Below are positions 1,861 through 28,642 of a DNA stretch of 62,569 nt, piece after piece (the first letter of the stretch is position 1; each line of letters opens with the position of its first letter). Origin of the DNA: an uncultured Candidatus Poseidoniales archaeon. Its GTDB lineage: Archaea; Thermoplasmatota; Poseidoniia; Poseidoniales; Poseidoniaceae. Under the pieces are notes generated by a model. That model was not told where the DNA came from. It did no database searches and worked only from the letters and a program-made list of their open reading frames with translations. The stretch spans positions 1 through 62,569 of the forward strand of contig CABYOM010000003.1 in NCBI GenBank assembly GCA_902520595.1. The letters run 5' to 3'. The position numbers were made by a program, and so were the translations under genes.

Positions 1861-1930
1861 CGGTTTGATTTACGGTTAATCTCTTTTTGCCTGCATAACG
1901 ACTATAAATCCGGCTGTGTGAGTATTATAT

Positions 1931-1996
1931 ATGCAACCACAAGGAATGCAACAAGGAATGCCAGCACAAGGAATGATGCAACAAGGAATGCCAATG
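1931..1996 (+). repeat. in-frame tandem repeat; 9-mer CAAGGAATG occurs four times
   Basis: CAAGGAATG starts at 1940, 1952, 1967 and 1982. It encodes MQPQGMQQGMPAQGMMQQGMPM. Confidence 0.8.
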
Positions 1997-2206
1997 GTGT
2001 CCGATAAGGACTGGGTTACCACTTTGCTGTTAAGTATTTTAGTCGGTTGGCTTGGAGTTGACCGATTTTACGCTGGAAGCATCGGCCTAGGAATTCTCAA
2101 ACTGATTACTCTCGGTGGGTGTGGCATTTGGAGTTTAATCGATATTATTCTCGTTGCAACAGGTTCTTTCAAAGACGGAAATGGCCTTCCAATAAAATCG
2201 AAGTGA
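1931..2206 (+). CDS. TM2 domain-containing membrane protein with an N-terminal Q/G/M repeat
   Basis: The stretch LGVDRFYAGSIGLGILKLITLGGCGIWSLIDIILV matches the TM2 domain pattern. The N-terminus is (Q)QGM repeats. Confidence 0.7.
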   Translation: MQPQGMQQGMPAQGMMQQGMPMVSDKDWVTTLLLSILVGWLGVDRFYAGSIGLGILKLITLGGCGIWSLIDIILVATGSFKDGNGLPIKSK

Positions 2207-2362
2207 AGTTATTTACACCTTTGAATCACTCCAATGAGTGAACTTTGCTCTTCATTGAGACAAGTAAAAATACTCTACTCTATAGGCGTAGTCATGGCTA
2301 GAGATTCAGGCTATTTGTCCAAATTTCCAGTTAAGTCTTCACAAACGCGACCAACAAATGTG

Positions 2363-2752
2363 ATGAAACCCTCTGTAGCGGTAGAGATTTGTTTTCAAGA
2401 GAAGTATTTTGATTTCAACGGACGCTCATCACGTTCTGAATTCTGGTTTTTTCTGACGTTCAACATTCTCTTTGCTGCAATCATCAATACTGTTCTTCTT
2501 TACGTTGGATCTTTTTTTGGCTATTGGGGAGGACTTATTTCTTCGATTCTTTCACTCACTGTCGGTCTACTTTTCTTCATACCACTCATGGCAGTGAGTG
2601 CACGCAGACTCCATGACGTGGGAAAATCTGGCTGGTATGCACTAATAGGCTTAATACCGATTCTTGGATGGTATCTCCTGATCAAAGCGTATGTGGATGA
2701 AGGTGAAACTACAATCAATTCATATGGCCGCTTACCGAATAATGATGTTTAA
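2363..2752 (+). CDS. DUF805 family inner-membrane protein (YhaH-like)
   Basis: Canonical DUF805 N-terminus KYFDFNGRSSRSEFWFF and RRLHDVGKSGWY motif. The start is placed at the internal ATG 2363; the ORF is open from 2234, so the start is uncertain. Confidence 0.7.
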   Translation: MKPSVAVEICFQEKYFDFNGRSSRSEFWFFLTFNILFAAIINTVLLYVGSFFGYWGGLISSILSLTVGLLFFIPLMAVSARRLHDVGKSGWYALIGLIPILGWYLLIKAYVDEGETTINSYGRLPNNDV

Positions 2753-4110
2753 TCACGGTTCGAATTCTTCCGGCCACGATTTCGTTTTTGGTTACGGTTT
2801 CTTCGGGATTTCGTATTGTTTGAATTTCCTCGCCCGCGAGCATTGTTTTGGTCGACTGAATTTCTGTTTGAACGATCTCGGTTTTGCGTATTTCTATTTG
2901 CATTTCTCGGGCGCTTTTTGGTTCCAGATTTGTCCTTGATTTTTCCTGGTTTTTGTCCTGGTTTAGGGATTGCGCCAATAAAATGAAATGGATGATTACT
3001 GTTGACAGGAATCTCTTTTCCAATCAGCTGTTGGATGCCGACAAGGTATCCACTTTCAGTATCATCACAAAAAGCATATGCAATTCCACTACGACCTGCT
3101 CGAGCAGTTCGTCCGATTCGGTGAACGTAACTCTCAGGTTCATTGGGTAAATCATAATTGAAAACGTGAGTGATTCCATCAACATCAATACCTCGACTGG
3201 CAATATCTGTAGCGACAAGAATAGGTATGTTGCCGTTTTTGAAACCTGCTAAAGCCTTGGTCCGGGCTCCCTGACTTTTATTTCCGTGAATCGCAGCAGC
3301 AGTAATATTACTCTGATCTAATTGTTTGACCAGTCTATTTGCACCGTGTTTTGTCCGGGTGAAAACAATGCCGCATTTCACCCGTTCTTCTTTGATGAGT
3401 TGAACGAGTAAACGCCGCTTATCCGCTTTCCTCAAAAACATGATTTTCTGTTCAATTCGGTCAACAGTCATTTCTTTTGGACTCACGTCTACCATTACCG
3501 CATTATTGAGGAATGTTCCAGCGAGTTTGGCAATTGACTTCGGCATCGTAGCACTGAAAAGCAGATTTTGGCGTTGCTTTGGAAGGAGTTTGATGACTTT
3601 TTCAATATCTCGAATAAATCCCATATCGAGCATTCTGTCCGCTTCATCAAGCACGAAGAATTCTACACGCGTTATGTCGATGTGTCCTTGCCCAATCAAG
3701 TCTAACAAACGCCCTGGAGTGGCGACTAAAATGTCCAAACCTTTCTGCAGAGCGCGAACCTGTGGATTTTGATTCACTCCACCAAATACAACGCGATGTC
3801 GAAGGTCCATGTGTTCACTGTATGCGGCAAATCGTTCGTCGATCTGGGCAGCTAATTCTCGTGTAGGTGAGAGAATGAGGGCTCGAATAAACCGCTTTCC
3901 TTGTGGTTTTTTTCGATTCATAATTTGCAAGACCGGTAAGGCAAATGCTGCGGTTTTACCCGTTCCAGTTTGAGCAACACCCAAGACATCACGTCCTTCA
4001 AGAAGCGGTGGAATGGATTGCTGTTGGACTGGCGTTGGAGTTGTATAACCTTCTGCCTCTACAGCGCGTAGTAAAGTGCTTGATAGCCCGAGTGATTGAA
4101 AGTCTGGCAT
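2749..4110 (-). CDS. DEAD-box ATP-dependent RNA helicase (RhlE-like) with an R/N/K-rich C-terminal tail
   Basis: Q-motif region GYTTPTPVQ, Walker A AQTGTGKT, DEAD, SAT, HRIGRTARAG. The start is chosen at MPDFQSLGL (ATG 4110). Confidence 0.9.
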   Translation of the reverse strand: MPDFQSLGLSSTLLRAVEAEGYTTPTPVQQQSIPPLLEGRDVLGVAQTGTGKTAAFALPVLQIMNRKKPQGKRFIRALILSPTRELAAQIDERFAAYSEHMDLRHRVVFGGVNQNPQVRALQKGLDILVATPGRLLDLIGQGHIDITRVEFFVLDEADRMLDMGFIRDIEKVIKLLPKQRQNLLFSATMPKSIAKLAGTFLNNAVMVDVSPKEMTVDRIEQKIMFLRKADKRRLLVQLIKEERVKCGIVFTRTKHGANRLVKQLDQSNITAAAIHGNKSQGARTKALAGFKNGNIPILVATDIASRGIDVDGITHVFNYDLPNEPESYVHRIGRTARAGRSGIAYAFCDDTESGYLVGIQQLIGKEIPVNSNHPFHFIGAIPKPGQKPGKIKDKSGTKKRPRNANRNTQNRDRSNRNSVDQNNARGRGNSNNTKSRRNRNQKRNRGRKNSNRD

Positions 4111-4247
4111 TGAAATCCTATTCCATGGAACGCCAAATACAAACAAATGCAGTTGACTACAAAGCACTCTCACTTCTCTTTGCCTAAATACCCGATTGAA
4201 GAAAGAAGAGACAAACGTCCAGTCTTGTCAACGATTCATGACGCCGC

Positions 4248-5774
4248 TCAAAGTATCGGTTGGTTTCTTAGCCACTCCAAATCAGAGATGTAGAGTTGAC
4301 GTATATCATCAAGACCAAGAACCAACATTGCTAATCGCTCAAGTCCCATTCCCCACGCCAGCACGGGCGAAGAAATCCCAAGTGGCTCAGTTACTTCAGG
4401 CCTGAAAATTCCAGCACCGCCCAGTTCCAGCCACTTTCCACGCCATTTGACCTCAATCTCAAGACTTGGCTCAGTATAAGGGAAGTATGCTGGTCGAACT
4501 CGAACTTCTGGATATCCCATCTTCGCATAGAATGTCTTGAGGGTTGTCACAAGCATTTGCAAGTTCGCACCTTCTTCCATTATGATGCCTTCAATTTGAT
4601 GAAACTCAGGTAAATGGGTTCGATCGATTGCTTCTTTTCGAAACACACGGTCAACCGAAAAGACCCGACACGCTTCTGTTGGATGCGCAGCCAAGTATTG
4701 AATGGTGTTTACCGTAGTATGCGTGCGTAGCAGACCTTTCTCTGAAGTCTCGGCAGAAAAAGAACCACCCCACCCTACTGAACCAGTCTCCCCTCCGTGT
4801 TCGTGAATCGCTCCCCAAGCATCTGTTAGGTGCTTTGGCAAGCTAATCGATTGAGGATTTTCAAGATAAAAGGTATCCTGCATTTCACGGGCAGGATGGT
4901 CTTGGGGAATGAACAAGGCATCCATATTCCATCCAGCAGTCTGAACATAATCGTCTACCAGTTCGGAAAAGCCCATCTCTAAGAAGATACTTCGAACACG
5001 CTCAATCAGCGCCTGCATCGGATGGCTTCGGCCTGTTCTTGGTGTAGCTGATTCAAGTGTGACGTCAAAGGGTCGGAAATCAGCGTCTTTCCACGCCTCA
5101 GATTGAAGCAATTCTGTGGTTATCTCGCTGATGGATTGTTTTTCAATGAGTGCCTCGGAATCGACTGCTTTACCTTGTACCGTAATTGACCATGTACGGG
5201 TTGTTGTAATCACAGACTCAATCAGGCCACGCCGTGATTTGAAATGTTCGAGCATTTCCGAATCAAGTGCTTCAGGTGCTGCAGGTAATCCCGCAAGGAA
5301 ACTACTTCGTGCATTGATTTCAGAAGTAACTGCAGCAGGGTTTGGCGAAACAAAAACCCCGTTTTCAAGTTGAACTCCAAGACGCTTGAGTAGCCCTACA
5401 CCTGGGCCTGCTTCATGGCGCTCAAACTGAGATTGCAAGTCTTTCATGTTCGGTGAATCCGAATTTGAAACCCATTTCCAAAGGCGTGATTCAAGCAATC
5501 CATTTTCTATGGCCTTTTTTCCTTCTTCTGCAAGTCGAATCGTTTCGGAATTTATTTCATTGGTCTTCGCAAAACCAGCATTCGTCAAGCCATGACCTGC
5601 ACCGACAGCAACCGCTTGGTCATTCCATTCGCACTCGCTGAGTATTTCAGAAAGCGTCCATTTATGTTGTCCTCTTGACTGCATAACACGCAACATTCTA
5701 CGCTCTGGATTGAGCAAAGCATCTGCGTCCATGATGCTTCGTAACAATTCATGCCCTTCAATTCTATGGTACAT
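4248..5774 (-). CDS. pheS: phenylalanine--tRNA ligase alpha subunit, archaeal/eukaryotic type
   Basis: Class II motifs FRKEAIDRTHLPEFHQIEG and GAGIFRPEV...AWGMGLERLAML. The long N-terminal extension is typical of archaeal PheS. Confidence 0.9.
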   Translation of the reverse strand: MYHRIEGHELLRSIMDADALLNPERRMLRVMQSRGQHKWTLSEILSECEWNDQAVAVGAGHGLTNAGFAKTNEINSETIRLAEEGKKAIENGLLESRLWKWVSNSDSPNMKDLQSQFERHEAGPGVGLLKRLGVQLENGVFVSPNPAAVTSEINARSSFLAGLPAAPEALDSEMLEHFKSRRGLIESVITTTRTWSITVQGKAVDSEALIEKQSISEITTELLQSEAWKDADFRPFDVTLESATPRTGRSHPMQALIERVRSIFLEMGFSELVDDYVQTAGWNMDALFIPQDHPAREMQDTFYLENPQSISLPKHLTDAWGAIHEHGGETGSVGWGGSFSAETSEKGLLRTHTTVNTIQYLAAHPTEACRVFSVDRVFRKEAIDRTHLPEFHQIEGIIMEEGANLQMLVTTLKTFYAKMGYPEVRVRPAYFPYTEPSLEIEVKWRGKWLELGGAGIFRPEVTEPLGISSPVLAWGMGLERLAMLVLGLDDIRQLYISDLEWLRNQPIL

Positions 5775-5818
5775 GTGCGTGTCATGAATGCTTTTTTCGG
5801 GTTGATTTTATCCACCAA

Positions 5819-6193
5819 TTACTCTTCTTCATCCCAGAGTTGAGCAGAGCATGCAGGGCAGACATACTTCGGTGGACGGTCAGTTTCAAGCGTTTCCACA
5901 TGACCACATGGACCACAAAGTACGGTACATTTTTTCGGTTCATCCAGTGTTACATCGACGCGATACATCACCCTACCTGCATCGGGTAATTGCGTAGATT
6001 CCGGTGTCCAATTCTCGATTTCTTCTTCTGATAAGCCCTGTTCAGATTTCATACTCATTCCAAGAATAAAAAGCACAACACCGCTCAATCCAATTGTAGC
6101 AGCAAGTGACATGAGGTTTGCAACACTAAAAAATCCGCCCGCAGTGATACAAATTATGCTTGCGATAAGGAAATTTTCGCGAACTTTTTGCAT
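5819..6193 (-). CDS. small membrane protein with a C-terminal zinc-ribbon (CxxC...CxxC)
   Basis: Two N-terminal TM helices, then CGPCGH...CPACS. Confidence 0.4.
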   Translation of the reverse strand: MQKVRENFLIASIICITAGGFFSVANLMSLAATIGLSGVVLFILGMSMKSEQGLSEEEIENWTPESTQLPDAGRVMYRVDVTLDEPKKCTVLCGPCGHVETLETDRPPKYVCPACSAQLWDEEE

Positions 6194-6202
6194 GCTATCG
6201 CC

Positions 6203-7540
6203 TCACTTGAGCGCATTTGCCAATGCTTCTGCAACGCGGGGAATTTGTTCTAAAGGAACGGCACATAATCCTATTCGGACACCGCCAGTTAGTGGGACAA
6301 GGAAGACATGTTCTTGTGCACATTTTTCAGCAATCACTTCAGGTTCATCGTGCTCAAGCCAAGCAAAGAAACCATCATGTGTTGGGTTTAATGGCACGCC
6401 GTATTGTTCACAACATTGCTTTAAGAGATTTCGGCGAGATACGAGAAGATCTTTCAATCGGTCTCGCTCCAAACCCCAAGCCTCTCCACCTTCTGGTGTC
6501 GAATGCATCTCACTGATTGTGAATTGAGCGACTCTAGGGGCTGCAGACCATGTCTGTCGACCGGTTACTCCCATGACTGTGCCAATCTTTTCCGTGACTT
6601 CAGTATCGGGGTGTATGCTGACCAGAGCACCGGTTCTTAGGCCATAGACGGTATGAGACTTTGACATCGAAATAGCGAATGTTAAAAGTAAATTTTCCGT
6701 CCATGGCCAGCCTTCTTCAACTGCTTCTCGGATTGTTTCTCCCCAACCATGAGGCTCTTCTGCATACAAGTGGTATGCCGCATCGATGAGCAAGGTGTGC
6801 CCAACGTGTTCGTTGGAAGATGCGCTTTCCATAACGGCTTCTAAAAATGCCATTCTTCCATCTGCGGTTAACGAGACACCGGTTGGGTTGTGTGCCGGGT
6901 CATTTAGCCAAATCATCACCTTATCTTGGGTTGAACAAAGTTTGGCAAGTTCTGCTTTGAAACTTTCAATATCAACAAAGGGATGTTGTGATTCTGTTGA
7001 TGCTGGTAGAAGGGGGAAAGTGGCAAAGTCAAGACCGCATCCTGTGATGAATCCTTTGTATGGCCCCCAATGTCGGTCACGCAGCAACACCTTCTCTCCA
7101 CGGTTTGCAAAGTTTGCTGCAGCGAGGTAAAGTGCACCTGAACCACCAGGACTAGCCGTTGCTGTCATTGAGATTCCGAGTTGTTCAAGCGCATCACGGT
7201 GTTCGCCCATTGCAAGCGTTTTTGCTAAATCTAAAAATGCTGGAAGACCTTTCAACGGTGCATATGCTGCAATTTCTACAGCAGGTGCAACACGAATGGC
7301 TTCATCGACTACTTGGTTAATAGCGAGAGTTCCGTCATCTTCGAGTAATGCTCCTATGGTCCCGTTAACGGCATCCACCCCCTGTTTTACTGCTTCCTGG
7401 TATCGAGCCCACCATCCAAAGATGGTATCGTTACCTACCTTCGTCTGCGCATAGGGGTTGAGTAATCCCGCACCAGCATCTGGGTCCATAGCCATCCGAA
7501 TGCGGCGTTGTTCTTTGACTTGTCTCTTGCTTTTTTTCAA
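6203..7540 (-). CDS. class I aminotransferase (aspartate/aromatic amino acid, AspC/TyrB-like)
   Basis: HNPTG motif and PLP-lysine context SMSKSHTVYGLRTG. The start is uncertain, with alternative ATGs about 15 codons in. Confidence 0.8.
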   Translation of the reverse strand: MKKSKRQVKEQRRIRMAMDPDAGAGLLNPYAQTKVGNDTIFGWWARYQEAVKQGVDAVNGTIGALLEDDGTLAINQVVDEAIRVAPAVEIAAYAPLKGLPAFLDLAKTLAMGEHRDALEQLGISMTATASPGGSGALYLAAANFANRGEKVLLRDRHWGPYKGFITGCGLDFATFPLLPASTESQHPFVDIESFKAELAKLCSTQDKVMIWLNDPAHNPTGVSLTADGRMAFLEAVMESASSNEHVGHTLLIDAAYHLYAEEPHGWGETIREAVEEGWPWTENLLLTFAISMSKSHTVYGLRTGALVSIHPDTEVTEKIGTVMGVTGRQTWSAAPRVAQFTISEMHSTPEGGEAWGLERDRLKDLLVSRRNLLKQCCEQYGVPLNPTHDGFFAWLEHDEPEVIAEKCAQEHVFLVPLTGGVRIGLCAVPLEQIPRVAEALANALK

Positions 7541-13278: not shown

Positions 13279-14436
13279 GTGACGTCAATGTGGCAACAGC
13301 CTCCCGAGAACACACTTGAAAGTCTCCGTCATGCAATCCTGCACAATGACGGTATCGAGTTTGATGTGCGCCTGACTCGAGACCAAGAGTTGGTTGTTCA
13401 CCACGATGTGAAAATCTCGGTTCCTAAAGCGAAGCGACCACATTCCCTTGCGTGGACTGAGAATCATACTCTTGATGAATTGACATCACAAGGTTTCATC
13501 TCTTTCCGTTCGTTACTTGAAGATACGCAGCTTCGTTCAGAATGGGTCGAAAACGGAAAGATGGGTTGTATCGAATTCAAGAGGCCCCACCCTCGTGCAC
13601 TGTATGGAGGTGGATTTTTTGGTAAGAAACAACACATATCGCATGTTTCTATGATGATGGAAAAGACAGAAACGATTCTTCAAGAGTTTGAAGTACCTTC
13701 TGAAAATACGGTATTTTACTCCTTTCATACCGGTATGAAATCGTCTATTCAGTCTTCTAAAATTCAACGCCCTTGGGCAGAATTGGTCCCTTATGTACCT
13801 CCTTTTGGCAATTATTATACCAAAAGAATGAGATCTGGCACTCAATTTTTATTCACGTCTCTCGCTCGCCTTATTGAATCTCATCGACGTTCTGGAGCAT
13901 CGATGTCTCCCTGTGCAATTGAATATTTTTTGCCTCCGAAAAGCTTGATTCCGCTGGGTTTTTCTGGCGGACTACACGGCTCAAAAGCGGCAAGGTTGAG
14001 CGCTCAGCAACGTGGTTTTCCAATCTATGTGTGGCCAACATCACTTCATGTTGAACATGATCTACTTTCTGCAGGCCTTACTGGACTTACTGATTGTTCA
14101 GATCCAAATATGACCTGGCTACCATCTGGTCATGCACGCTGGACTCAACCAGGAACTCGCCCTTTAGATGCAACACAACAACAGAAACTTGACCTTGCCA
14201 CTCAGGAAAATCATCTTGACATCTTGCGCGAACTCAAATCGGAAACATGTCCATGGAGGGAATGTGATAATGAACGTAGAAAGGATTTAGTCGATATGTG
14301 GAGGAAAAAATGGCAATGGGAAAATCCAACAACTCAAATTCTTGAACAGGCAGGCGGTTCATCTCCTCCGTGGGAATCAATACGATTGATTGGTCATCGA
14401 GGTTCAGGTAAAACCTCTCGGCCAGTCTTCAAATGA
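13279..14436 (+). CDS. glycerophosphodiester phosphodiesterase (GDPD) family protein, atypical
   Basis: PENTLESLRHA...GIEFDVRLTRDQELVVHHD is the GDPD core. The HRG catalytic motif is missing at the N-terminus and appears at the extreme C-terminus (LIGHRGSG). GTG start. Confidence 0.65.
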   Translation: MTSMWQQPPENTLESLRHAILHNDGIEFDVRLTRDQELVVHHDVKISVPKAKRPHSLAWTENHTLDELTSQGFISFRSLLEDTQLRSEWVENGKMGCIEFKRPHPRALYGGGFFGKKQHISHVSMMMEKTETILQEFEVPSENTVFYSFHTGMKSSIQSSKIQRPWAELVPYVPPFGNYYTKRMRSGTQFLFTSLARLIESHRRSGASMSPCAIEYFLPPKSLIPLGFSGGLHGSKAARLSAQQRGFPIYVWPTSLHVEHDLLSAGLTGLTDCSDPNMTWLPSGHARWTQPGTRPLDATQQQKLDLATQENHLDILRELKSETCPWRECDNERRKDLVDMWRKKWQWENPTTQILEQAGGSSPPWESIRLIGHRGSGKTSRPVFK

Positions 14437-14438: not shown

Positions 14439-15605
14439 TCATTTAACGTGGCGAAGATTTTGACCTTCAGCGATGTATTTTGGCCTGTAAATTGGAAGGC
14501 CTTTCCCGTCACGGAATACGCTTCTTTCATCAACGATTTGGGCACCAATTCCAGAAACTCGAGCCCATCCGAAGAACGTAGTGTAGTAGGTTGGATCTGT
14601 CAAGCCAGCATGATGTAAAAGCGCACCACTGGCGATATCGACATTGGCATTTGGATTACTGATTTTCGGGTTCTCTGCCAACACCCGAGGTGCCACTTCT
14701 CGCAGAGTTGTAATAATCTTGAAATTTTCGTCCTCGGGGCAAATTTGTGAACCCAATTCAAATTGAACAGTAGCACGGGGATCTTCTGAGCGAAGAACTG
14801 CATGGCCAAATCCAAAGATTGGACGGTTCGCTGCCAGTTCTGCTCGAACGAATGCTTCGACCTCGACTGGATCGCTGGTACCCACCTTCAAGACGAACTC
14901 TAAACAAGATTGGTTTGCCCGTCCATGCAGAGGTCCAGACAGTGCATTCATCGCACCGGCCATAGCTGAATAGACCGTAGCCTTACTCGATGCAATCGCC
15001 TTGCCAGTAAAAGTCGACAGGTTTCCACCTCCATGGTCCATGTGAAGAACAAGGTAGGTCGAAACGATTCTCTTCATTTTTTCAGTATCTGCATTTGGCA
15101 AATCAAGGCATTGGATGAAGCGTTCAACCATTGAGAGCGAAGTGTCATCATTTGGGATATTTTCTTCACGGCCCTCTCGTATTCTAAAGATGAGTCCCAT
15201 TAGGCGGGGCATTCGTGCGATGAGATTGAAAGCATCATCTTTCCAATTATTGGTAGTCTCAAACATTCCAAGAGTGTGGATACCAACGCTCAGCCAGTCC
15301 ATTGGATGGCCCGATTTAGGGAGGGCTTTGAGTACAGATTCGAGGTCACCTGGAACAGCAGCACGATTTGATAGGTCTTGGCGAATTGCCGCTGATTGCT
15401 CTTCATCCGGTAATTCTTTGTTAAACAAGAGGTATATGATATCCTCGGGGTCAAATGCTGCGAGTTCTGCAATTGGGTAGCCGCAGTAGTGAACGCCTTC
15501 AGAAGGCGTGACAAACGAAGTGCGACACGTGCCTACAGGAATTCCTCGTAGACCTGTGTTGAGGTGCTTTTCAGTCACCTCCAAAAGCACCTCGTTCTTG
15601 GTCAT
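14439..15605 (-). CDS. gltA: citrate synthase
   Basis: Motifs HMDHGGGNLST, GPLHGRAN, GFGHAVLRSEDPR. The start is set at MTKNEVLL (ATG 15605); the ORF is open to 15677. Confidence 0.9.
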   Translation of the reverse strand: MTKNEVLLEVTEKHLNTGLRGIPVGTCRTSFVTPSEGVHYCGYPIAELAAFDPEDIIYLLFNKELPDEEQSAAIRQDLSNRAAVPGDLESVLKALPKSGHPMDWLSVGIHTLGMFETTNNWKDDAFNLIARMPRLMGLIFRIREGREENIPNDDTSLSMVERFIQCLDLPNADTEKMKRIVSTYLVLHMDHGGGNLSTFTGKAIASSKATVYSAMAGAMNALSGPLHGRANQSCLEFVLKVGTSDPVEVEAFVRAELAANRPIFGFGHAVLRSEDPRATVQFELGSQICPEDENFKIITTLREVAPRVLAENPKISNPNANVDIASGALLHHAGLTDPTYYTTFFGWARVSGIGAQIVDERSVFRDGKGLPIYRPKYIAEGQNLRHVK

Positions 15606-15704
15606 AGAATCTCCGCCGATTTCACCCACATACATCTTTCGTATAAAGGCGGCTCTTCTATAATCAATACTTTCCAACCCGTTCCCAAGTGCGCAGAAAC
15701 GGTC

Positions 15705-16172
15705 TTAGTTTCGATTCCACGCTGGCCATGAACGGAATCCCTTTGTCGATTCACGGTCAGCAAAGACATGGATGCGTATAGTCTCACCGTCGATGAGTAT
15801 GGCATCGTCTGTCGTTAGTCCGGGGCATTCTTCTTTGACCTTCTTCCAAGCACGTTCAGTCGCTAGATTTTCACTCCACCACGGAAATGCTGCACACTGC
15901 TGTGGTCGAACTGAATAAATTGAGCACTGCTTGTTATCGTCGAGATAAATACAAACATCATCGACCGATCGACTCTTCAAAACATATCGTCCATCAAGTG
16001 TTTGTCGGCAATCTCGTTCCAACCAGTCTTCAACGCTCATCTCATGACTTTGAGATATTCTTTCGGCATCACGCGGTGAAAGGTAGACTATTCCCCCTGG
16101 TTCATCACAGCACCTTCCACATCCTTCTTGGCAGGAAAATCCGACGCCTTTCATCCACCATGGGCCTCTCAT
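15705..16172 (-). CDS. YkgJ/UPF0153-family zinc- or iron-chelating Cys-cluster protein
   Basis: CQEGCGRCC near the N-terminus and C..L......C.IY..RP..C..FP later. ATGA overlap with the upstream gene, and AGGTGA before the start. Confidence 0.7.
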   Translation of the reverse strand: MRGPWWMKGVGFSCQEGCGRCCDEPGGIVYLSPRDAERISQSHEMSVEDWLERDCRQTLDGRYVLKSRSVDDVCIYLDDNKQCSIYSVRPQQCAAFPWWSENLATERAWKKVKEECPGLTTDDAILIDGETIRIHVFADRESTKGFRSWPAWNRN

Positions 16173-18205
16173 TCTTCTTCACCTGGGACGAGTGTTGTGA
16201 CCTTTGTTTTTTGAGCGAGGCGTATCAGTCGAGTGTCTTCTTGGTCATTTAGTAAGTCCAACATGTCTACACTTCTCGCATCAATATTCCATTCACCTTC
16301 TGGCTCGTGACTTTCGAAAGATTCGTTGACCGAATCCGTTTTGCGCCGACCAACTTTACGACGAGTTTTGGTTTGAAGTCCATCCGGTTCCATATCAGGC
16401 CATGGCTCACGTTCAGGGTCAAATTCGGTCAGACTCTGTTCCATTGAACGCAGTTCATCGGCAATTGAGATCAGTTCATCCATAGATGCATCAGGTGTGC
16501 GCTCAGACAGATTAACTAACTTATGCTCAATGTTTGCAAGCTGCATCGAACTCTCTCGGAGTTCCATTTCAAAAGCATTGATCTGAGAATCAAAGGCTTC
16601 GTCTAATTCTGTAAGGACATCAGCAGCAAGTCCGTAATCACGTTGCTCAATTTTTCCTTTACGGGCGATGAGGTGCTCTTCCCGCTCATGTAAAGCGAGG
16701 ACAGAAGGTGCGGCAGGGGTTGTATCTTCAAGTGCTAATTTTAGGTGAGCAGCATGCCGTTCATCAGCCTGTTTCCTCATCAAATCAATGTCCAAATCAG
16801 GAGGCTGATATGCATCATCGCCGATCTCTGGAAGTTCAGAATACAAATCGATTCCACCATGAACGGTGTCACTGTAAACAGTGTCTACAGCAGTTGAGAT
16901 TAGACGTGCAGCAATATCTTCGACTTTTTCTTGAACGCTCGGAGTAACTTCTGTATTTTCCAAAGATTGATCTGAAAGAAGTGCATACACATCTTGGCCA
17001 TCAACAATCTCTTGTCCAGAGTCAACAGCGAGGGCGACTAAATCGAAATTCGCTTTTGTTGCCCGCCATCCTATATCGTCTTGCAAGACAATGCTTTTCA
17101 GTTGAGCATCGTCAAAAATGAAACCCTTCTTTTGTGCCAAACTTCGAGCATAGAGGATCATACTCGCAACTTTTGGACTCCCGATTTTTACTGCTGCTGC
17201 ATGACGCGTTAATTCCCACAGTCGAGAAGTTGGCCAGGTATCCGGTTCTGATTGTGAGGAAAGTAAAACGTGAACTCCCATGTTCAGCGCATAATCGACC
17301 ATCGTTCCGATTTCATGGGCGAGGTCAGCATTATCTGCACATTCGTGAATGTCATCGATAGCTAGCAATCGAGCATTCACCAGTGTATCCTGCCAACCTA
17401 ATGGTAACTGGTCCATTCCAAAAAAATCAGTTGCCGACAATAAGTAGACACCGCCTTCTTGGCGACGTAAAACGGCCTGAGATATGGCGTGGAGAAGGTG
17501 CGAGCGGCCGGTTTCAGAGGGGCCGATAAACAGCATTGGGTTGAGTTGGCCCCCAGGTGAATCAACGATTGCTTCAGCAGCTTGCGTAGCACGAATGTTT
17601 TCATCGGTGGTGAACCACTGTTTGAAACTCATACGAATATCCGAACGCAAGCGAGTAGGCCATTGTCCTTCTGTAGGGACGACGACTTCATGGTGGTAAG
17701 GTGATGATCTATCTACAGGTGCTATTTCTGCTGGCAATGCGTGACTCACTCGCCCCCGTTGCTCATCGAGTATACGCTCCCAGACAGGTCGCCCATCCAC
17801 TTCCAATCCCAAAAATCCAATCTCCTCTTCCTCGACTATCTCTTCGAGCTGGTCGTAGGTTCGTTTCCGTAAGGAGCGTATTCTACGAGCAGCAATGTCA
17901 GACAGGGAATCTCCATTGGAGCGTAAATCAAGGGCAGGTGACCTGCGCTTGCTCTCTTTGCCCAAGACCTTATCAGCAACTAAATCAAAAGTTGGCCGTT
18001 GAGCGACACCGGTTCTCTGCAGAAGAGTGCTGCCCCGTTGGTCCGTAACATCCTTTCCAAGTAATCTGTTCATCTTTGATTTTGGACGAGATTTTTCTTC
18101 ATTTTTTGGAGGAGTCGATACGCGGTTAATACCTGAATCGGATTGATCAAGCCGTTGTTTCGCTAGCTCAAGAGCGAGGGCTAATTTTTCTCGGCGAGCA
18201 CTCAT
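16169..18205 (-). CDS. hypothetical protein with a central DnaA/Hda-like AAA+ module (degenerate Walker A), flanked by a basic disordered N-terminus and an acidic coiled-coil-like C-terminus
   Basis: NPMLFIGPSETGRSHLLHAI compares with DnaA NPLFIYGgvGLGKTHLlhAi. Walker B is LLAIDDIHE, sensor-1-like is VLLSSQSEP, and a lid-like segment follows. A GAGGAGGAG tract lies 6 nt before the ATG. Confidence 0.5.
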   Translation of the reverse strand: MSARREKLALALELAKQRLDQSDSGINRVSTPPKNEEKSRPKSKMNRLLGKDVTDQRGSTLLQRTGVAQRPTFDLVADKVLGKESKRRSPALDLRSNGDSLSDIAARRIRSLRKRTYDQLEEIVEEEEIGFLGLEVDGRPVWERILDEQRGRVSHALPAEIAPVDRSSPYHHEVVVPTEGQWPTRLRSDIRMSFKQWFTTDENIRATQAAEAIVDSPGGQLNPMLFIGPSETGRSHLLHAISQAVLRRQEGGVYLLSATDFFGMDQLPLGWQDTLVNARLLAIDDIHECADNADLAHEIGTMVDYALNMGVHVLLSSQSEPDTWPTSRLWELTRHAAAVKIGSPKVASMILYARSLAQKKGFIFDDAQLKSIVLQDDIGWRATKANFDLVALAVDSGQEIVDGQDVYALLSDQSLENTEVTPSVQEKVEDIAARLISTAVDTVYSDTVHGGIDLYSELPEIGDDAYQPPDLDIDLMRKQADERHAAHLKLALEDTTPAAPSVLALHEREEHLIARKGKIEQRDYGLAADVLTELDEAFDSQINAFEMELRESSMQLANIEHKLVNLSERTPDASMDELISIADELRSMEQSLTEFDPEREPWPDMEPDGLQTKTRRKVGRRKTDSVNESFESHEPEGEWNIDARSVDMLDLLNDQEDTRLIRLAQKTKVTTLVPGEEE

Positions 18206-20205
18206 GATATCTCCTCCTCTAACTCTTTTCGAAGTCGTTCACGATCTTCGATTTCCCAGATGCTTAGTTTATTTTCAATGGAAGGCTCTGATTGTTTTCG
18301 AGAAGCTGACTCACGATTGACCGTTTTAGATTTCGCTGATTTTCCAGCGCCAGGTCGGGCACTTAACGGCGTAAGTTTTGTTTCAGTGTTGACTGGCCTT
18401 CTACTTTTGACCGATTCAATCGAGTCTTTTTGCGTTGAAGACATCCGTCTACCCACATCTTGAATATCTTTGAATTCAATTGAAGAGTTCTTCAGCGATG
18501 AATCGCTCCGAGGTGTATATTGGGCACGTACGCTTTCTATCGCTTGATTTTGACGGTCAGCATAGGATTCAAGTGAATCAGCAAATGTGCTCCGAGGTGC
18601 CGAGCGCATATTCTGAATTTCACTCAACTCTTTGGCGTCAACAGCATGGACCGCTGCGGCTTGAATAGCACGTTGATTACGAGAAGTCTTCCGCAAACTG
18701 GAGTTTTTCTTTCTTCTGCGAATGCGTTGAGCTGGTCGGGGGCCGCTTCTTTTGTTTGCGTCAACTTCAATCTTTGGAGACTTTTTCTCCTTTGTCCCAA
18801 CAGGTTTGGTAACTTGGACAGCAGGCGTATCATCCTCTGCCTCGTTTTGTTTCGTTTCCATCTCCTGCTCTTCTTCTTGAGAATGCATGGGGGCTTGCTG
18901 GACAGTTTCCGTCACACTGAGAACTTCTTGAGTTTCGTTTTTGAGATCAGGTGCAATCTGTTCGGCAGACGGAGGTTGTTCCGGATGACTCCACTCGCGA
19001 GCAACTGTTTCAAGCGTTTCTGTTGCAGCAATGATTGCCTCGGAATCTGGAGAATCCACTCCTCCCTCCATCGTACCAAATACAGTCGTTTGCGAAGAGA
19101 AATTTTCTGAGTTTGAAGCAGATATTGCCTGCTGTAGTTGTTGTTCAATCCATTTCCCTTCTTCTTCACTAGGTGGTGCACAGAGTGGATGGTCAAGAAT
19201 CAAGTCTGGCTCGAGGTTCCAATGCTCAAGAACAGAAGGCTCAAGATTGGACATATAGCGAGACAGGTGTTCTCTTGTCGTGAGAGGGAATGCGTTCAAG
19301 TCACCTGTCGCTAAGAAGAGATGGTCTTCAAGTCGAACACCGTCAACAATATCCCGAAGGAAGTTGACTACCTTATCATCTCCGTGCAGGCTTGCTAAAT
19401 ATTCAACTCCTTCAAGAACAACGACTGCACGAAGGTTTTCCCACAAAAATGCGTCAATTCTACGGCGAATGTTTTCCAATGCAGGGTCTGTTGAACGAAC
19501 ATCACCGTTTTGAGAAAGCCATGAACTTGAAGCGATTGGAATATTATGCTCGACATTGAGCGCTTCAATATCGTGCCGTGCAAGTACGAACAATGGACGT
19601 CCATGAACTGCTAAGTACCCTGCAAGATCAAACATCAGTGCTGGATTTTTTGAATCAAAGAAGTAAGCATCTCCCGGTCGCAACATCTTTTCGAGACCAT
19701 CATGCCGTTGCATGAGTGCTTTACTTCGCAGTCGAACTGCTTCAGGTGCCTCAACAACGACTTCCAGTTCAGGCAATCGTTCTTCTCTTTTCCAGGAACT
19801 CGTTCGGATATTTGTTTTCGACCACCATTGGTGATCTTCCGTATTTGTTTCAGAGGAATCATCCATTTGGAAATGTGCCTCGGGATAGAGGTTGAGGACA
19901 TTTGTCATATCTGGCAAGGACAATTCATGGATGCCGAGTAACGAATCAAGAAGCGCTGCGTCGTTTTCGATATCCAGTAATGCTTCAAGCGACATCGAGA
20001 TGGCGTCGGCTTCGTGTAAGGCGAACATCGGCTTTCCTTCAAGAAACGCAATATGACCGATTCGAGGCATCTGCTCCTTGGGCCTTCGCTCAATTCGGAT
20101 GTATCCGGAGGTCCCCAACCGGGCCATATCCGTAGAAAGTAATCGCAGAGATTCAGGACCGCCTCGACGAACTTCTGTCACATCTCCCTGCGGCAGTTCT
20201 ACCAT
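18202..20205 (-). CDS. hypothetical protein with an N-terminal small domain, a DUF835-like module, and about 340 aa of acidic then basic disordered tail
   Basis: Residues about 175-320 (PGDAYFF...LFVLARHD...SSSWLS...IDAFL...AVVVLEGVEYL...VVNFLRDIVD...HLFLATGD) follow the DUF835 pattern. GGGGTGAG precedes the ATG. Confidence 0.5.
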   Translation of the reverse strand: MVELPQGDVTEVRRGGPESLRLLSTDMARLGTSGYIRIERRPKEQMPRIGHIAFLEGKPMFALHEADAISMSLEALLDIENDAALLDSLLGIHELSLPDMTNVLNLYPEAHFQMDDSSETNTEDHQWWSKTNIRTSSWKREERLPELEVVVEAPEAVRLRSKALMQRHDGLEKMLRPGDAYFFDSKNPALMFDLAGYLAVHGRPLFVLARHDIEALNVEHNIPIASSSWLSQNGDVRSTDPALENIRRRIDAFLWENLRAVVVLEGVEYLASLHGDDKVVNFLRDIVDGVRLEDHLFLATGDLNAFPLTTREHLSRYMSNLEPSVLEHWNLEPDLILDHPLCAPPSEEEGKWIEQQLQQAISASNSENFSSQTTVFGTMEGGVDSPDSEAIIAATETLETVAREWSHPEQPPSAEQIAPDLKNETQEVLSVTETVQQAPMHSQEEEQEMETKQNEAEDDTPAVQVTKPVGTKEKKSPKIEVDANKRSGPRPAQRIRRRKKNSSLRKTSRNQRAIQAAAVHAVDAKELSEIQNMRSAPRSTFADSLESYADRQNQAIESVRAQYTPRSDSSLKNSSIEFKDIQDVGRRMSSTQKDSIESVKSRRPVNTETKLTPLSARPGAGKSAKSKTVNRESASRKQSEPSIENKLSIWEIEDRERLRKELEEEIS

Positions 20206-20369: not shown

Positions 20370-21020
20370 ATGGCCGAAGAGCGAGGTGAATTGTCTGTCG
20401 AAATGCGACGATTTATTTCACTTGAAATCGCTCGGCCATTCCTGTATCGTTTTTTTACTACACTGTTGATTTTAGAGGCATTTATGGTCGGATTCGTATG
20501 GTTTTTTATCTCCACTGGGAACAGTTTTTCACTCACGATTTTCCCGCTGTTAGTCGGTGTTATTGGCGGAATATTCCTCTATCAAAAATCACCACTTCTA
20601 CGTGTTCCTTTAGCGGTGAATTTGAATCATCCATTCATGGGTGACCTTGAGATGGGGCAAGCCGTTGTTATGGTTCAATTCTCTGATGGTTTATGGGGGG
20701 ATGTGGGTGTTGGCAGGGTGCGACTGACTGTTGATGAGTTGATGGGAGGCACACTCCTCATTCGAGATGACGATACCTATGCGGTCATCGGGCACTTTAG
20801 TCATCTGCCTCAACATCACCCAGCACTCAAACGATACGTGATTTTAATCAATCAAGCCATCGCACTGAGAGATGCAGTTAATGGCGATGAAGATTCAATT
20901 GAATCTGCTCGAGAGAGAGAAAAAATTGATTCAGGTCTTCTCGAGCGTTCATGGCTTGAAGAAGAACAGAATATTGAGATTGAACCCGAGGGCATTTTCA
21001 GTAAATTACGACGAGAATAA
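20370..21020 (+). CDS. hypothetical membrane protein (2 TM plus a soluble C-terminal domain)
   Basis: ORF only; hydrophobic helices in residues about 25-75. Confidence 0.35.
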   Translation: MAEERGELSVEMRRFISLEIARPFLYRFFTTLLILEAFMVGFVWFFISTGNSFSLTIFPLLVGVIGGIFLYQKSPLLRVPLAVNLNHPFMGDLEMGQAVVMVQFSDGLWGDVGVGRVRLTVDELMGGTLLIRDDDTYAVIGHFSHLPQHHPALKRYVILINQAIALRDAVNGDEDSIESAREREKIDSGLLERSWLEEEQNIEIEPEGIFSKLRRE

Positions 21021-21078: not shown

Positions 21079-21690
21079 GTGGAATCTCCTCATCGATGGC
21101 ATGGTCACCTTGACGCACTCGGTTTGAAAGAACGTGAGACACTCTTGGGTGCGTCACTTTCCAGGCGCTTCACGCAATTACCTCTTTGGCTCTCTCACCC
21201 GTCGAATATTGCCGCTTTTTATGGACTCTTGATATCGCTTGCTCTCCTTCTGCCCTACAGATTTGGTAATGAATCTGCCAGCTGGTTCAGCAATTGGATT
21301 TTTCATTCCGCACTCATCATGGTTTCATGCCTGGTTTTAGGAATGCTGTCTTTGATTATTGTAAGTCTCTCAAAGCGTTTTCCAGTAACACCTCCTCGAT
21401 ACATTCTCTATCCAATGCCATTTCTAGGATTTGGATTATTAACGATTTCCCAAACTGAAATTTTGACAATTCCCTCAGGCCTTGTATGGCTTCTTTTGTT
21501 ATTGCCAGGTCCAATGTATGTTCACCTTTCTTGGGCTCCACGCTGGCGATTGCTTTGCCAACTTGAAGATGGAATCAATCCGTTTGAGGCAATGGATATG
21601 CCCCTACTTGAAGAGACGAATGCGATTGAAGAAATTACAGATGGAGACGAAGAATTACTTTCCGTTGTTAACGCACTTGAATCCGAATGA
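21079..21690 (+). CDS. hypothetical polytopic membrane protein with an acidic tail
   Basis: ORF with a GTG start and four predicted TM helices. Confidence 0.35.
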   Translation: MESPHRWHGHLDALGLKERETLLGASLSRRFTQLPLWLSHPSNIAAFYGLLISLALLLPYRFGNESASWFSNWIFHSALIMVSCLVLGMLSLIIVSLSKRFPVTPPRYILYPMPFLGFGLLTISQTEILTIPSGLVWLLLLLPGPMYVHLSWAPRWRLLCQLEDGINPFEAMDMPLLEETNAIEEITDGDEELLSVVNALESE

Positions 21691-26108: not shown

Positions 26109-27311
26109 TTAATGCAGCAAGCCCCAGGAATGCTCTGCGTTTCCTCTCGCCCATTCATAATCAGTTTCTTTTCTCGTGCCAAATTCATCCTTAATTCTCA
26201 GATATTCCATCCGCAAAGGGTATTCATTGTAGGTCAGGTGAGACTTTATTCCGCCGCGCGTCGGTTGATTAAACGTCCAATGCGCCCGTTCAATGGCTTG
26301 TACTCGTAACTCGATTGTTGTTCTTTCATTCCACATTTTGATTTCAAAAACAGGGAGTGGTGCACCAGGTGTCTGTCCATGTTCGCCTTCGGTTAAATTA
26401 GACGATAGCTTTCGAACTCGGACGCTGGTAAAACGCTCAGAACGGTTATTGATTGGGTCATGAAACAGACCACCTTGTGAAAGTCCTAGATGCCCCGCAT
26501 CTCGTCGTTTCCAAGGTCGATTATCCCTCGCGCTTACTGTAAACGATACATGAGGCAAGAACCAGTCAATGTACGATCCATCATTGAGATGAAGCATCCC
26601 CCAGTACCACGGTACCGAAGGTGCTTGAACACAGACCTTTTGGAAATAAGCCGTGCCTGCCACTTCTTGGTCATCCAACATACCGTGCACACGAGTCCCA
26701 TGCAAGCGGAGGATGTCATATCCCATATTTGCAGCATATGTTGCATTTGCTTGACGTGCGGTGGATAAGGCTGAGTTCCAAGGCGTGAGTTCGAGTTCAA
26801 ACCTTTTCGGTACCATTGGGTGTGAGGCTTTTTCGTCAGTGGTTAGTTGAATCCAAAACGAACTCAAATCACTTTTTAGACCCATTGAAAGGTCCTGTTC
26901 AAGAAGAGGTACGACCGCTCCCCCTCCCTTTCCAGTTTGACCTGATTTTTCTGGCCAGTATGAATGGGTATCTGGCAAAGAAATCATCCGACAAATCTGT
27001 TGAATAACCGGTTCATGCATTTGCTTTCCATCAAACCACCATGCGCAAACCATGCCGTCTAAGGCCATTCCTTTTTCGTCATCAAAACCTGGTCGTCCGG
27101 CGGGCATCCATGGCATGCCGTTCACATCGACCAAAGGATTGTCCTTTGTTGACCACAAGACCATGAGTTGGCGCCCACTTGGACGACCATCCGGGTCGTC
27201 GAGCATGACCAACCACCACCACCAATCCCATGTGAGATGATGAAGTGGAGGGCGGTCTTGAAGCGACCACATTTTGGAAAGGTCTCCAGTAAATGCTTTC
27301 ATTTCAGGCAT
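26109..27311 (-). CDS. Trp-rich hypothetical protein, tentatively AttH/CrtC/tocopherol-cyclase-like beta-barrel fold
   Basis: HHLTWDWWWWLVMLDDPDG...QLMVLWS resembles the hP..EWWY..g.l motif. GTAYFQKVCVQAPSVPWYWGML resembles G.gY.EKnWG..fP..W.W. The start is at ATG 27311 (TAATG overlap with the upstream permease, AGGAGA SD). Confidence 0.35.
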   Translation of the reverse strand: MPEMKAFTGDLSKMWSLQDRPPLHHLTWDWWWWLVMLDDPDGRPSGRQLMVLWSTKDNPLVDVNGMPWMPAGRPGFDDEKGMALDGMVCAWWFDGKQMHEPVIQQICRMISLPDTHSYWPEKSGQTGKGGGAVVPLLEQDLSMGLKSDLSSFWIQLTTDEKASHPMVPKRFELELTPWNSALSTARQANATYAANMGYDILRLHGTRVHGMLDDQEVAGTAYFQKVCVQAPSVPWYWGMLHLNDGSYIDWFLPHVSFTVSARDNRPWKRRDAGHLGLSQGGLFHDPINNRSERFTSVRVRKLSSNLTEGEHGQTPGAPLPVFEIKMWNERTTIELRVQAIERAHWTFNQPTRGGIKSHLTYNEYPLRMEYLRIKDEFGTRKETDYEWARGNAEHSWGLLH

Positions 27312-28642
27312 TATTGTATCTCCTTGCCCTTGAACAAAGCACCGCCAATGAACCAAAATATTGCTGCTTGGAAAAGTAAGACGAGTGTTGAAACTATCAT
27401 CGCAGTAAAAGCTGAAAGTCCGAGTCCAGGCTTTGAGGAAAAGAATCCCAATGGACCCGCACCCTCAAGTGAAGTTTCGAAATTCCAACCTGCATTCCCG
27501 TCTCCACCCCAGTTACCCATGAGGATGAACAAATCAAGATTCGGCCAAACTAACATTGCAGCAGCATCAATAATCATCAAAGCCCAGCCAATTATTGAGA
27601 ATCGAAGTAGGGTTGCATCGGGCGCACCCATAGATAACAAGGCCATTCCTAATTCCCATGCTGCAAAGGGTATGGCCAGAATGATACCATATTTCCATAG
27701 AACTCCAAGAGCGTTAAACAGCATGCCATACACGAGCGTCGCCATCATTGTAGCGAATATGATTGCCAGCCAAACGCCGAGGTCGGCAAATCGAAAGAAA
27801 CTGTCGCCAGAACCTGCAAAACCCGATACGATAGCACCAAGAATTCCCAAGGCTATGACGTAAGGCCAAACGATTCCAAGATATCCCAAGGTACGGTAGA
27901 GAAATAATTCGGTACGAGCAATAGGTTTTGCGAGCATGAAGTGCATCGTTCCAGAATTCATTTCATCTCGAATGAGTCCAGTTGCCATAAACAGAGGTAG
28001 GAAGATTCCTAGCAAGAGTACAAACCCAAGTTTTCCAATCGAGAGAACAAACGCAATGTGAATTGCTTCTCGTGAATATGCATCTTCATCTGGGTCTTCA
28101 TCCACGCCATTGTCAGCATCGATACTCGCGTAAAAATTTCCGTCAGAAAGGCGATAGTATTCGACGACAATATCGCACGGAATACCATTACCATTTGTGT
28201 CTTTTTGGGATGCGGTTTTATTCGAATCCAAACAATCTCCATCGTCGTCATATCCCGTTGATTGTTCCCCAAGCCGTATGGTGACATCCCAATCAAAGTC
28301 GTCTTCGTTGATATACATGGACTTCGGGTCGGGTTCAATAGGTGGGTCAAATAATCCAGGGTGTGAATTGCCATCCCATGGGTCTGTTCCAAGAAGAATT
28401 TCTTGGCCTCTTGGATATCCATCGTTATCATAGTCGGTTGAATCTCTATCATTATCAATTGATTCAAACTCAGATGCCATCACATCGATGTAAATCAAGA
28501 AGATGAGGGAAAGCGCTGTGAATCCTACACCCAATACGACCCATGTTGATTTCTTTGTCCGATACTGACGGAGTGTAAACTCGATGATCGCAGACGCCTT
28601 TCTATCAAGTGAGCGGTAAATCGACTGGGGTTTTGTAGCCAT
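27311..28642 (-). CDS. ABC-2-type transporter permease with an acidic, Ca-binding-like (TSP3-like) ectodomain
   Basis: One N-terminal TM, then about 135 aa with DNDRDSTDYDNDGYPRGQEILLGTDPWD, DDDGDCLD, DTNGNGIPCD. Five to six TM helices follow. TGATG overlap with the upstream ATPase. Confidence 0.6.
   Translation of the reverse strand: MATKPQSIYRSLDRKASAIIEFTLRQYRTKKSTWVVLGVGFTALSLIFLIYIDVMASEFESIDNDRDSTDYDNDGYPRGQEILLGTDPWDGNSHPGLFDPPIEPDPKSMYINEDDFDWDVTIRLGEQSTGYDDDGDCLDSNKTASQKDTNGNGIPCDIVVEYYRLSDGNFYASIDADNGVDEDPDEDAYSREAIHIAFVLSIGKLGFVLLLGIFLPLFMATGLIRDEMNSGTMHFMLAKPIARTELFLYRTLGYLGIVWPYVIALGILGAIVSGFAGSGDSFFRFADLGVWLAIIFATMMATLVYGMLFNALGVLWKYGIILAIPFAAWELGMALLSMGAPDATLLRFSIIGWALMIIDAAAMLVWPNLDLFILMGNWGGDGNAGWNFETSLEGAGPLGFFSSKPGLGLSAFTAMIVSTLVLLFQAAIFWFIGGALFKGKEIQ

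Follow-up and report, generated by a model that had tools for sequence, protein, structure and literature searches.

The DUF835 domain carries no ATPase motifs, and a census of archaeal two-component systems (PMC5847659) describes it, as inactivated KaiC (iKaiC), in the role of an output domain fused to receiver (REC) and PAS domains in Methanomicrobia and Thermoplasmata. DnaA-like ATPases have been described from archaeal viruses and integrated elements, as far as the accessible part of that literature goes. Here we analyse a locus that joins these two kinds of module, found in a 62,569-nucleotide stretch of DNA from an uncultured Candidatus Poseidoniales archaeon (contig CABYOM010000003.1 of assembly GCA_902520595.1; the whole stretch is called the window below, and all positions are counted in it). 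Gene 1 (18202–20205, minus strand) is an open reading frame (ORF) for a soluble protein of 667 residues, protein 1, with an alpha/beta N-terminal domain, a DUF835 domain and a disordered tail. Gene 2 (16169–18205, minus strand) encodes protein 2, also soluble, whose 678 residues comprise an N-terminal motif region, a DnaA-type AAA+ domain with lid, a coiled coil and an acidic tail. They are followed by gene 3 (15705–16172, minus strand), an ORF of 155 residues for a CxxCxxCC (YkgJ-type) Cys-cluster protein.

Marine Group II archaea, the Poseidoniales, are among the most abundant planktonic archaea; they are uncultured, and their cell biology is known from genomes only. Genes 1 and 2 appear to form an operon in every locus of this order that we examined, with no placed locus elsewhere, and the two acidic, fast-evolving proteins most likely cooperate as a heteromeric scaffold or switch that would be non-enzymatic or would only bind nucleotide. 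Each would be centred on a P-loop-derived oligomerization module whose catalysis has been lost or is being lost: in protein 1 an inactivated KaiC/RecA-like DUF835 domain, a domain type used elsewhere as an archaeal signalling output, and in protein 2 a bacterial DnaA-type AAA+ domain. Long disordered linkers flank both modules; short conserved motifs and basic patches in them, together with an acidic tail at the C-terminus, would recruit partners. We give this explanation as a whole a probability of roughly 45%.

The building blocks belong to known superfamilies; new are the way in which they are assembled, their invariable pairing, their confinement to Marine Group II and the progressive decay of catalysis. 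An earlier note on this DNA, made from its letters and here called the sequence-only reading, had proposed that the pairing was undescribed, and our literature searches for a DUF835/DnaA-like pair likewise found no paper that describes one.

Distribution and gene order of the pair

For protein 1 the word-indexed searches returned 223 full-length relatives and for protein 2 about 105, all of them from marine metagenomes or from metagenome-assembled genomes named Euryarchaeota, Poseidoniales or Poseidoniaceae. With more than 100 full-length relatives for each large protein, and N-termini that align from residue 1, both genes are real. When 1.84 billion representatives were searched exhaustively with a profile, 61 matches fell below 1e-30, including a divergent full-length tier (23–36% identity) that a narrow-alignment scan of species-representative genomes assigned to Candidatus Thalassarchaeaceae and other Poseidoniales only. 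Every relative that could be placed genomically, down to about E 1e-30, sits at the same syntenic Poseidoniales locus, in one case from the divergent tier on a contig of 1.86 Mb. Among these placed relatives no pair was found outside the order, and beyond about E 1e-30 tandem DnaA-like proteins and canonical DnaA appeared. Because every placed relative sits at one locus, the pair is, as far as seen, single-copy and order-specific.

We fetched 40 Poseidoniales loci and recovered both genes in 27. In all 27 the DUF835 gene lies next to the DnaA-like gene and on the same strand, down to about 23% identity (about 23–29% in Thalassarchaeaceae), and their junction is a 4-nucleotide overlap in many lineages and a short gap in Thalassarchaeaceae. 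In the window the three minus-strand ORFs lie where the sequence-only reading had put them, and both ATGA stop/start overlaps that it reported, at 18202–18205 and 16169–16172, can be read in the sequence, as can the purine-rich Shine-Dalgarno-like tracts upstream of each ATG (GGGGTGAG, GAGGAGGAG and AGGTGA). The survey of gene neighbourhoods in related genomes that it had suggested found gene order kept across Poseidoniales loci. Its view of the three genes as one unit did not survive this survey: the CxxCxxCC gene is convergent with the pair in most Thalassarchaeaceae (L012–L034, with L019 as an exception), so the conserved transcription unit is the pair and not the triad. The CxxCxxCC protein, at 46–73% identity to that of the window, also evolves far more slowly than both large proteins.

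Protein 1 carries an inactivated KaiC-like domain

The Pfam DUF835 model matches protein 1 over residues 198–306 (E 1.4e-8; 35.0 bits against a gathering cutoff of 33.1) and is matched by all 21 aligned orthologues, at best with E 9.1e-16. In the AlphaFold2 model a confident alpha/beta domain (residues 1–110) precedes a RecA-like core at about residues 175–335 and a mostly disordered tail of about 280 residues. Foldseek matched the core to FlaH/ArlH (4yds), Pyrococcus PH0250 (2ekd), RecA and KaiC. Within the DUF835 region (residues ~170–340; 19186–19698, minus strand), the Walker A position is occupied by DSKNPA. The motif GxxxxGK[ST], the Walker A requirement of KaiC and ArlH, was not found in the DUF835 domain in the orthologue alignment, and D-S-x-N/D-P replaces the P-loop in all orthologues aligned, which bears out the earlier call of a DUF835 module without a P-loop. 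The combination of a RecA/KaiC-like fold with D-S-x-N-P at the P-loop position identifies the core as an inactivated KaiC-like domain.

Protein 1 therefore resembles DUF835/iKaiC proteins and ArlH/FlaH in its RecA/KaiC-like core and in the DUF835 match of all orthologues tested, and differs from ArlH and KaiC in lacking Walker A. Unlike the archaeal iKaiC signalling proteins, it has neither REC nor PAS, carries a novel N-terminal alpha/beta domain and a disordered tail of about 300 residues, and is always paired with a DnaA-type AAA+ protein.

The N-terminal domain (19876–20205, minus strand) is folded, with a predicted local distance difference test score (pLDDT) of about 85, has an invariant E-x-R-R-G-G and belongs to no named family. 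It gave no Pfam match, either within the full proteins or as the isolated domain at E up to 10, and no PDB profile match; a PDB sequence search with protein 1 also returned nothing. Alignment to DUF4388/PATAN (PF14332) with hhalign gave P=0.12 for the single sequence and P=0.15 for a profile of nine sequences, in the same register both times and with a compatible order of secondary structure, a similarity that is not significant. A single orthologue matched DUF2226 weakly (E 0.009).

Residues ~363–640 (18286–19119, minus strand) form a variable disordered linker (pLDDT <50) with conserved islands: the basic patch GPRxAxRxRRxKK (about 18706–18750, minus strand) and, in the alignment, the motifs LTPL.ARPG and RESASR.QS. 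The K/R/S/E-rich low-complexity stretches remarked on in the sequence-only reading are such poorly conserved linkers, with pLDDT below 50 and conserved islands within them. No transmembrane segment is predicted in protein 1 or protein 2, and by their charge profiles the two proteins are acidic overall, with basic patches in places.

Protein 2 is built on a DnaA-type AAA+ module

Pfam upheld each of the three domains named earlier (DUF835, DnaA-type AAA+ and CxxCxxCC). In protein 2 the sole match is Bac_DnaA, over residues 191–323 (E 8.7e-11). The curated NCBIfam models are matched below threshold, TIGR00362 (DnaA) with 50.8 bits against a cutoff of 343.9 and TIGR03420 (Hda) with 44.3 bits against 194.8 (E 1.5e-11). 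An AlphaFold2 model built with a 73-sequence alignment shows an AAA+ core with lid at about residues 200–410 (pLDDT 80–90) and a helical hairpin at 470–595; both ends are of low confidence, and the model shows coiled coil and disorder in the C-terminal half. The best Foldseek match is domain III of Bacillus subtilis DnaA (8bv3; E 1.9e-12, template modelling (TM) score 0.79, root-mean-square deviation 3.1 Å), the other top matches are also DnaA domain III (8btg, 2z4r and 1l8q; E 1e-12 to 1e-9 over the range), and Hda (3bos, 5x06) ranks next, ahead of RuvB and RFC. A profile hidden Markov model of the family aligns to B. subtilis DnaA over Walker A, Walker B, box VII and sensor II. Model, fold search and profile thus agree on a DnaA domain III-like core and lid at residues 191–412 (16970–17635, minus strand), which shares with bacterial DnaA and Hda the AAA+ sub-fold including the lid, and in which Walker B, box VII SR(L/F) and the sensor II Arg can be aligned to those of DnaA.

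Protein 2 lacks DnaA domains I, II and IV: the models for domain IV (PF08299) and domain I (PF11638) were not found in 20 orthologues at E up to 5, whereas true DnaA matches do carry domains I and IV. With domain IV absent, the DnaA-box-binding helix-turn-helix is absent too. The initiator-specific motif (ISM) region is 7–8 residues shorter than in B. subtilis DnaA and is modelled as two short helices (258–261 and 271–275). Unlike DnaA and Hda, protein 2 is extended by about 190 residues at the N-terminus and 270 at the C-terminus in a family-specific architecture, is encoded by an archaeal host, scores far below the curated cutoffs and has no Hda clamp-binding motif. In a regular-expression scan of 73 family sequences, a PCNA-interacting protein (PIP) box occurred in none, and a bacterial-type clamp-binding motif in 20, without positional conservation and not in the protein of the window; across both families, no conserved PIP, clamp-binding, HbYX or MIM motif was found.

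We therefore rejected two identities for protein 2. As a DnaA replication initiator it would want domains I and IV, a score nearer the curated cutoff and an intact Walker A; as Hda, it is too long (678 against about 230 residues), again under the curated cutoff, and without the clamp-binding motif. Protein 2 is neither a replication initiator nor Hda. Public orthologues are named 'chromosomal replication initiation ATPase DnaA' (JGI) and 'DnaA/Hda family protein' (NCBI MCH2435714.1), and further members of the two families 'DUF835 domain-containing protein' or 'hypothetical'; given the missing domains I and IV and the low scores, the DnaA-type names are misleading.

Features of protein 2 outside the catalytic motifs persist across the order. 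They include the N-terminal motifs RP, G.P.W..VLD.QR and WP, the motif EPEGEW.ID, the coiled-coil segment and an acidic C-terminus (...GEEE, ...PEE or ...DEEE). The coiled-coil hairpin spans residues ~470–597 (16415–16798, minus strand), with modelled helices at 473–495, 522–569 and 575–595 (pLDDT 75–87), and this region contains a conserved ELI..D.L motif. The terminal G-E-E-E (16172–16183, minus strand) does not vary within the window's clade; across the order, acidic variants (..P.EE, ..DEEE) are seen.

Repeated erosion of the ATPase site

In the window, Walker A of protein 2 reads GPSETGRS (17501–17524), with Arg in place of the catalytic Lys. It is followed on the same minus strand by Walker B, LLAIDD (17351–17368), by S-R-L in box VII (17219–17227), aligned to box VII of DnaA at the position of its arginine finger (R328), and by W380-R381 at the sensor II position (17063–17068), aligned to NIRELEGAL of DnaA. 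We counted the states of these motifs over 51 representatives of the family. The Walker A position is Lys in 25, Arg in 18, Cys in 6, and Val and Thr in one each, so that, unlike in DnaA and Hda, about half of the lineages have another residue in place of the Lys. The Walker B DD is kept in 45/51; 38 have the box VII Arg and 13 have lost it, and for the sensor II Arg the figures are 35 and 16. The sequence-only reading had called the Walker A degenerate; this holds for the window and fails as a trait of the family, since 25 of the 51 retain the Lys.

On a rough neighbour-joining tree the non-lysine states are scattered over several separate clades, which suggests that the Walker A lysine was lost several times independently. 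To judge from these sequences, catalytic residues decay repeatedly across Poseidoniales while the non-catalytic motifs and the acidic tail persist, and such a pattern fits a role for protein 2 in which shape and contacts matter more than the turnover of ATP.

The same motif states can be read in another way. Protein 2 could act in trans in the manner of Hda, a hydrolysis-incompetent DnaA-type module that keeps its arginine finger, docks on another AAA+ protein of the initiator clade (Orc1/Cdc6 or a helicase loader) and stimulates or blocks the ATPase of that protein, with the iKaiC partner conveying a cell-cycle or environmental signal. In the window's clade the arginine finger and the sensor II Arg are retained although the Walker A Lys is lost, as would be expected of a trans-acting protein, and both the place of the Hda structures directly after DnaA in the fold search and the weak TIGR03420 match point the same way. 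The 13 and 16 representatives that have lost the arginine finger and the sensor II Arg, respectively, speak against it, as do the shortened ISM region, the threefold size of protein 2 and its score far under the Hda cutoff. Neither family has a conserved PIP box or bacterial clamp-binding motif, and the 62-kb window holds no Orc1/Cdc6, PCNA, MCM or origin-like context. We regard a regulator of this kind as improbable.

Evidence for and against a partnership

Returning to a scaffold or switch formed by proteins 1 and 2, the evidence for their coupling comes from rates, gene order and co-occurrence. They are the fastest-evolving proteins of the neighbourhood (22–46% identity to the window, compared with 59–89% for citrate synthase and the aminotransferase), and their pairwise-distance matrices give the strongest correlation, with r=0.97 and a partial r=0.86 given citrate synthase. 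This mirror-tree comparison uses 21 loci; a run with a stricter coverage filter (9 loci) was set aside. Rearrangements and insertions are seen to either side of the block (GrpE context in L009, one additional gene in L013, a DUF309 gene in L001 and also in L038, and additional ORFs ahead of citrate synthase in L009 and L011), yet none of them splits the pair or changes the relative orientation of its genes. In the loci examined both proteins always occur together, and in Poseidoniales only. Locus L038 was also considered as a natural experiment in which the triad is accelerated and citrate synthase is not, and was discarded: the identities of the aminotransferase and of the glycerophosphodiester phosphodiesterase (GDPD)-family protein also fall there.

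Gene order has a more prosaic explanation that must be taken seriously, namely that the locus contains no functional unit and that three unrelated neighbours are held together by high synteny and compaction, their overlaps reflecting genome streamlining. Ten of the 37 same-strand adjacent gene pairs in the window (27%) overlap by 4 nucleotides, at a coding density of about 93%, and some have no evident functional link, for example 46624–47706 with 47703–48911. The overlaps of the triad, which had been taken as a sign of co-expression, do indicate co-transcription, and are no special feature, since such junctions are routine in this genome. Order-wide synteny extends to the aminotransferase, two small membrane proteins, citrate synthase, the GDPD gene and TatC, a block of about ten genes; because the whole region is syntenic, conserved adjacency is weak evidence of function. 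That the CxxCxxCC gene flips strand and differs in evolutionary rate also suits unrelated neighbours. They would, however, hardly be expected to leave the gene 1/gene 2 junction intact amid rearrangements on both sides, to co-occur without fail, in the loci examined, within a single order and to show the most tightly correlated divergence. On balance we think this alternative unlikely.

The frequency of overlaps and the extent of the synteny weigh against a partnership too, and further points do so. The partial-Mantel comparison is also positive for the CxxCxxCC gene (0.60, 0.76), and partial correlations of this kind can be inflated by saturation of fast genes and by shared phylogeny. In protein 2 of the window, Walker B, the arginine finger and the sensor II Arg are all retained and the K-to-R change is conservative, so some nucleotide-dependent activity is possible. 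No partner domain that would reveal a function was identified. The analysis shows the folds of the domains, the states of their motifs, the range of lineages that carry the pair, the order of the genes and how fast they evolve relative to one another; contact between proteins 1 and 2, their oligomerization and a scaffold or signalling role are what we infer. The roles named in the sequence-only reading, a chromosome or cell-cycle scaffold or a signalling hub, which it offered as speculation, are still speculative. A physical and functional partnership of the two proteins is the best-supported reading at a little under even odds, and is not established.

Gene 3, two small membrane proteins and the surrounding genes

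The product of gene 3 matches the CxxCxxCC model (PF03692; E 3.5e-11, 44.1 bits against a cutoff of 23) with the motif C18-G-R-C21-C22 and C14 upstream; a PDB sequence search found no solved relative. Its membership of the YkgJ/CxxCxxCC family is clear, and its link to the pair is positional only. To our knowledge the function of this family is mostly uncharacterized; the flagellin lysine methylase FliB of Salmonella belongs to it. The gene adjoins the pair wherever flank is available, with L027 as a possible exception (none in 2.8 kb downstream). It is co-transcribed with the pair in the window's lineage only, and may or may not take part in its function.

The locus runs from two small divergent ORFs through the DUF835, DnaA-like and CxxCxxCC genes to citrate synthase and GDPD. 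The two ORFs, which we call sm1 and sm2, lie on the plus strand: sm1 (20370–21020) is divergent from gene 1 and encodes 216 residues with 2 predicted transmembrane segments, and the adjoining sm2 (21079–21690) encodes 203 residues with about 3. Neither has a recognizable domain or Pfam family. Both may be part of the cluster, and a variant of the scaffold or switch explanation would make them the membrane tether of a five-gene system, perhaps with the Cys-cluster protein, that acts for example as an envelope sensor or organizer. Such a system would account for the occurrence of sm1 and sm2 (24–58% identity) directly ahead of gene 1 and on the other strand, seen in each Poseidoniales locus whose flank is long enough, for their predicted transmembrane segments and for the basic patches in the disordered regions of both large proteins. 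It is weakened by the DUF309 gene that separates sm1 from gene 1 in two lineages (L001 and L038), by the absence of recognizable domains from sm1 and sm2 and, here as well, by the synteny of the whole region, and we consider it quite unlikely.

On the other side of the pair, the citrate synthase ORF (14439–15677, minus strand) has a longest form of 412 residues from a TTG, compared with 387–392 residues in its orthologues, and its start is likely the ATG at 15605. A TTTATA box at 15642–15647 suggests that citrate synthase has its own promoter, and the upstream transcript therefore probably ends before it. The GDPD-family protein (13279–14436, plus strand) matches its Pfam model over the first ~60 residues only; it evolves fast (31–53% identity across the order) yet stays beside citrate synthase. 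Among the Thalassarchaeaceae loci (L012–L034), several lineages have an inserted MFS/ATG22-type transporter gene that separates GDPD from the genes downstream.

Farther away in the window, a SUF iron-sulfur assembly operon (34616–39459, plus strand) encodes a SufC-like ABC ATPase, two SufB/D proteins, a cysteine desulfurase and a small ORF; its four consecutive 4-nucleotide overlaps illustrate how common such junctions are in this genome. Five large ORFs (379–610 residues; 49285–50775, 51651–52790, 54037–55869, 59683–61326 and 26109–27356) have no Pfam family at E up to 0.001–0.01, and two of them flank solute-binding-protein or ABC-type genes.

DnaA-type modules outside replication

A metagenome scan for remoter relatives of protein 2 was dominated by canonical DnaA, and its informative loci were L041–L048. 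Together with L040 (positions 1640–6962 of that contig), these metagenome contigs carry a conserved operon that encodes, in this order, PATAN(DUF4388)-TPR, TPR-Roadblock, two Roadblock proteins, an Arf/MglA-like small GTPase and a tandem DnaA-type AAA+ protein of about 650 residues. The upstream PATAN-TPR, Roadblock/LC7 and GTPase genes were seen in L040–L047 where flank was available, often with a second PATAN-TPR gene downstream. Between loci, the small GTPase is 72–82% identical and the tandem AAA+ protein, which ends in ..RLIEE, 30–44%. Literature searches found no paper describing this operon.

Like protein 2, these are non-replicative DnaA-type AAA+ proteins without domain IV and with an acidic C-terminus, each a fast-evolving operon member that overlaps the upstream gene and whose partners are regulatory NTPase-type proteins. 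Unlike protein 2, each has a pair of AAA+ modules in which Walker A is intact; a GTPase, Roadblock proteins and PATAN proteins accompany them in place of iKaiC, and their hosts are probably bacterial. We claim no sister relationship to protein 2, because the ranking of the tandem proteins above canonical DnaA stems partly from the summing of their two domains. The loci L040–L047 show that DnaA-type modules are used outside replication, beside regulatory NTPase systems.

A different source for such a module would be a domesticated viral or plasmid replication or partition system. In the accessible part of the literature, archaeal DnaA-like ATPases are otherwise described mainly from mobile elements, and protein 2 shares with them the occurrence of a DnaA-type AAA+ domain in an archaeal setting. 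It differs from the viral ATPases in being chromosomal, single-copy, order-wide and vertically inherited, with no specific viral relative found. Its chromosomal position is fixed across the order among housekeeping genes, no integrase or other mobile-element gene is present, a viral structure library gave generic AAA+ matches only (E about 1e-7), weaker than those to bacterial DnaA, and tblastn matches in phages are 23–27% identical and confined to the AAA+ core. An origin of this kind is disfavoured and, in our judgement, very improbable.

The scaffold or switch explanation can also be carried further, into a speculative form that we consider quite unlikely. The pair would then be the core of an unrecognized archaeal machine for cell organization or signalling, in which oligomers or filaments of the AAA+ pseudo-ATPase dock the inactive-KaiC partner and are linked to sm1 and sm2. 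Docking would proceed through the acidic ...GEEE tail and the basic E-x-RRGG domain, and assembly would perhaps be nucleotide-gated in lineages that keep the Walker A lysine. By analogy, the machine would be a counterpart of the bacterial PATAN/Roadblock/small-GTPase/DnaA-like operons (L040–L048), and its bacterial DnaA-type module would have been acquired by transfer in the ancestor of Marine Group II.

The immediate consequence of our analysis is a corrected annotation, for the DnaA label would wrongly imply a bacterial-type initiator in an archaeon. The locus also offers a clean natural series from AAA+ ATPase to pseudo-enzyme, with Lys, Arg, Cys, Val and Thr variants among orthologues. If the proposed complex is real, the pair would be a lineage-defining regulatory or scaffold system and a candidate marker for Poseidoniales, and would provide, beside the PATAN/Roadblock/GTPase operons, a second example of DnaA-type modules recruited outside replication.

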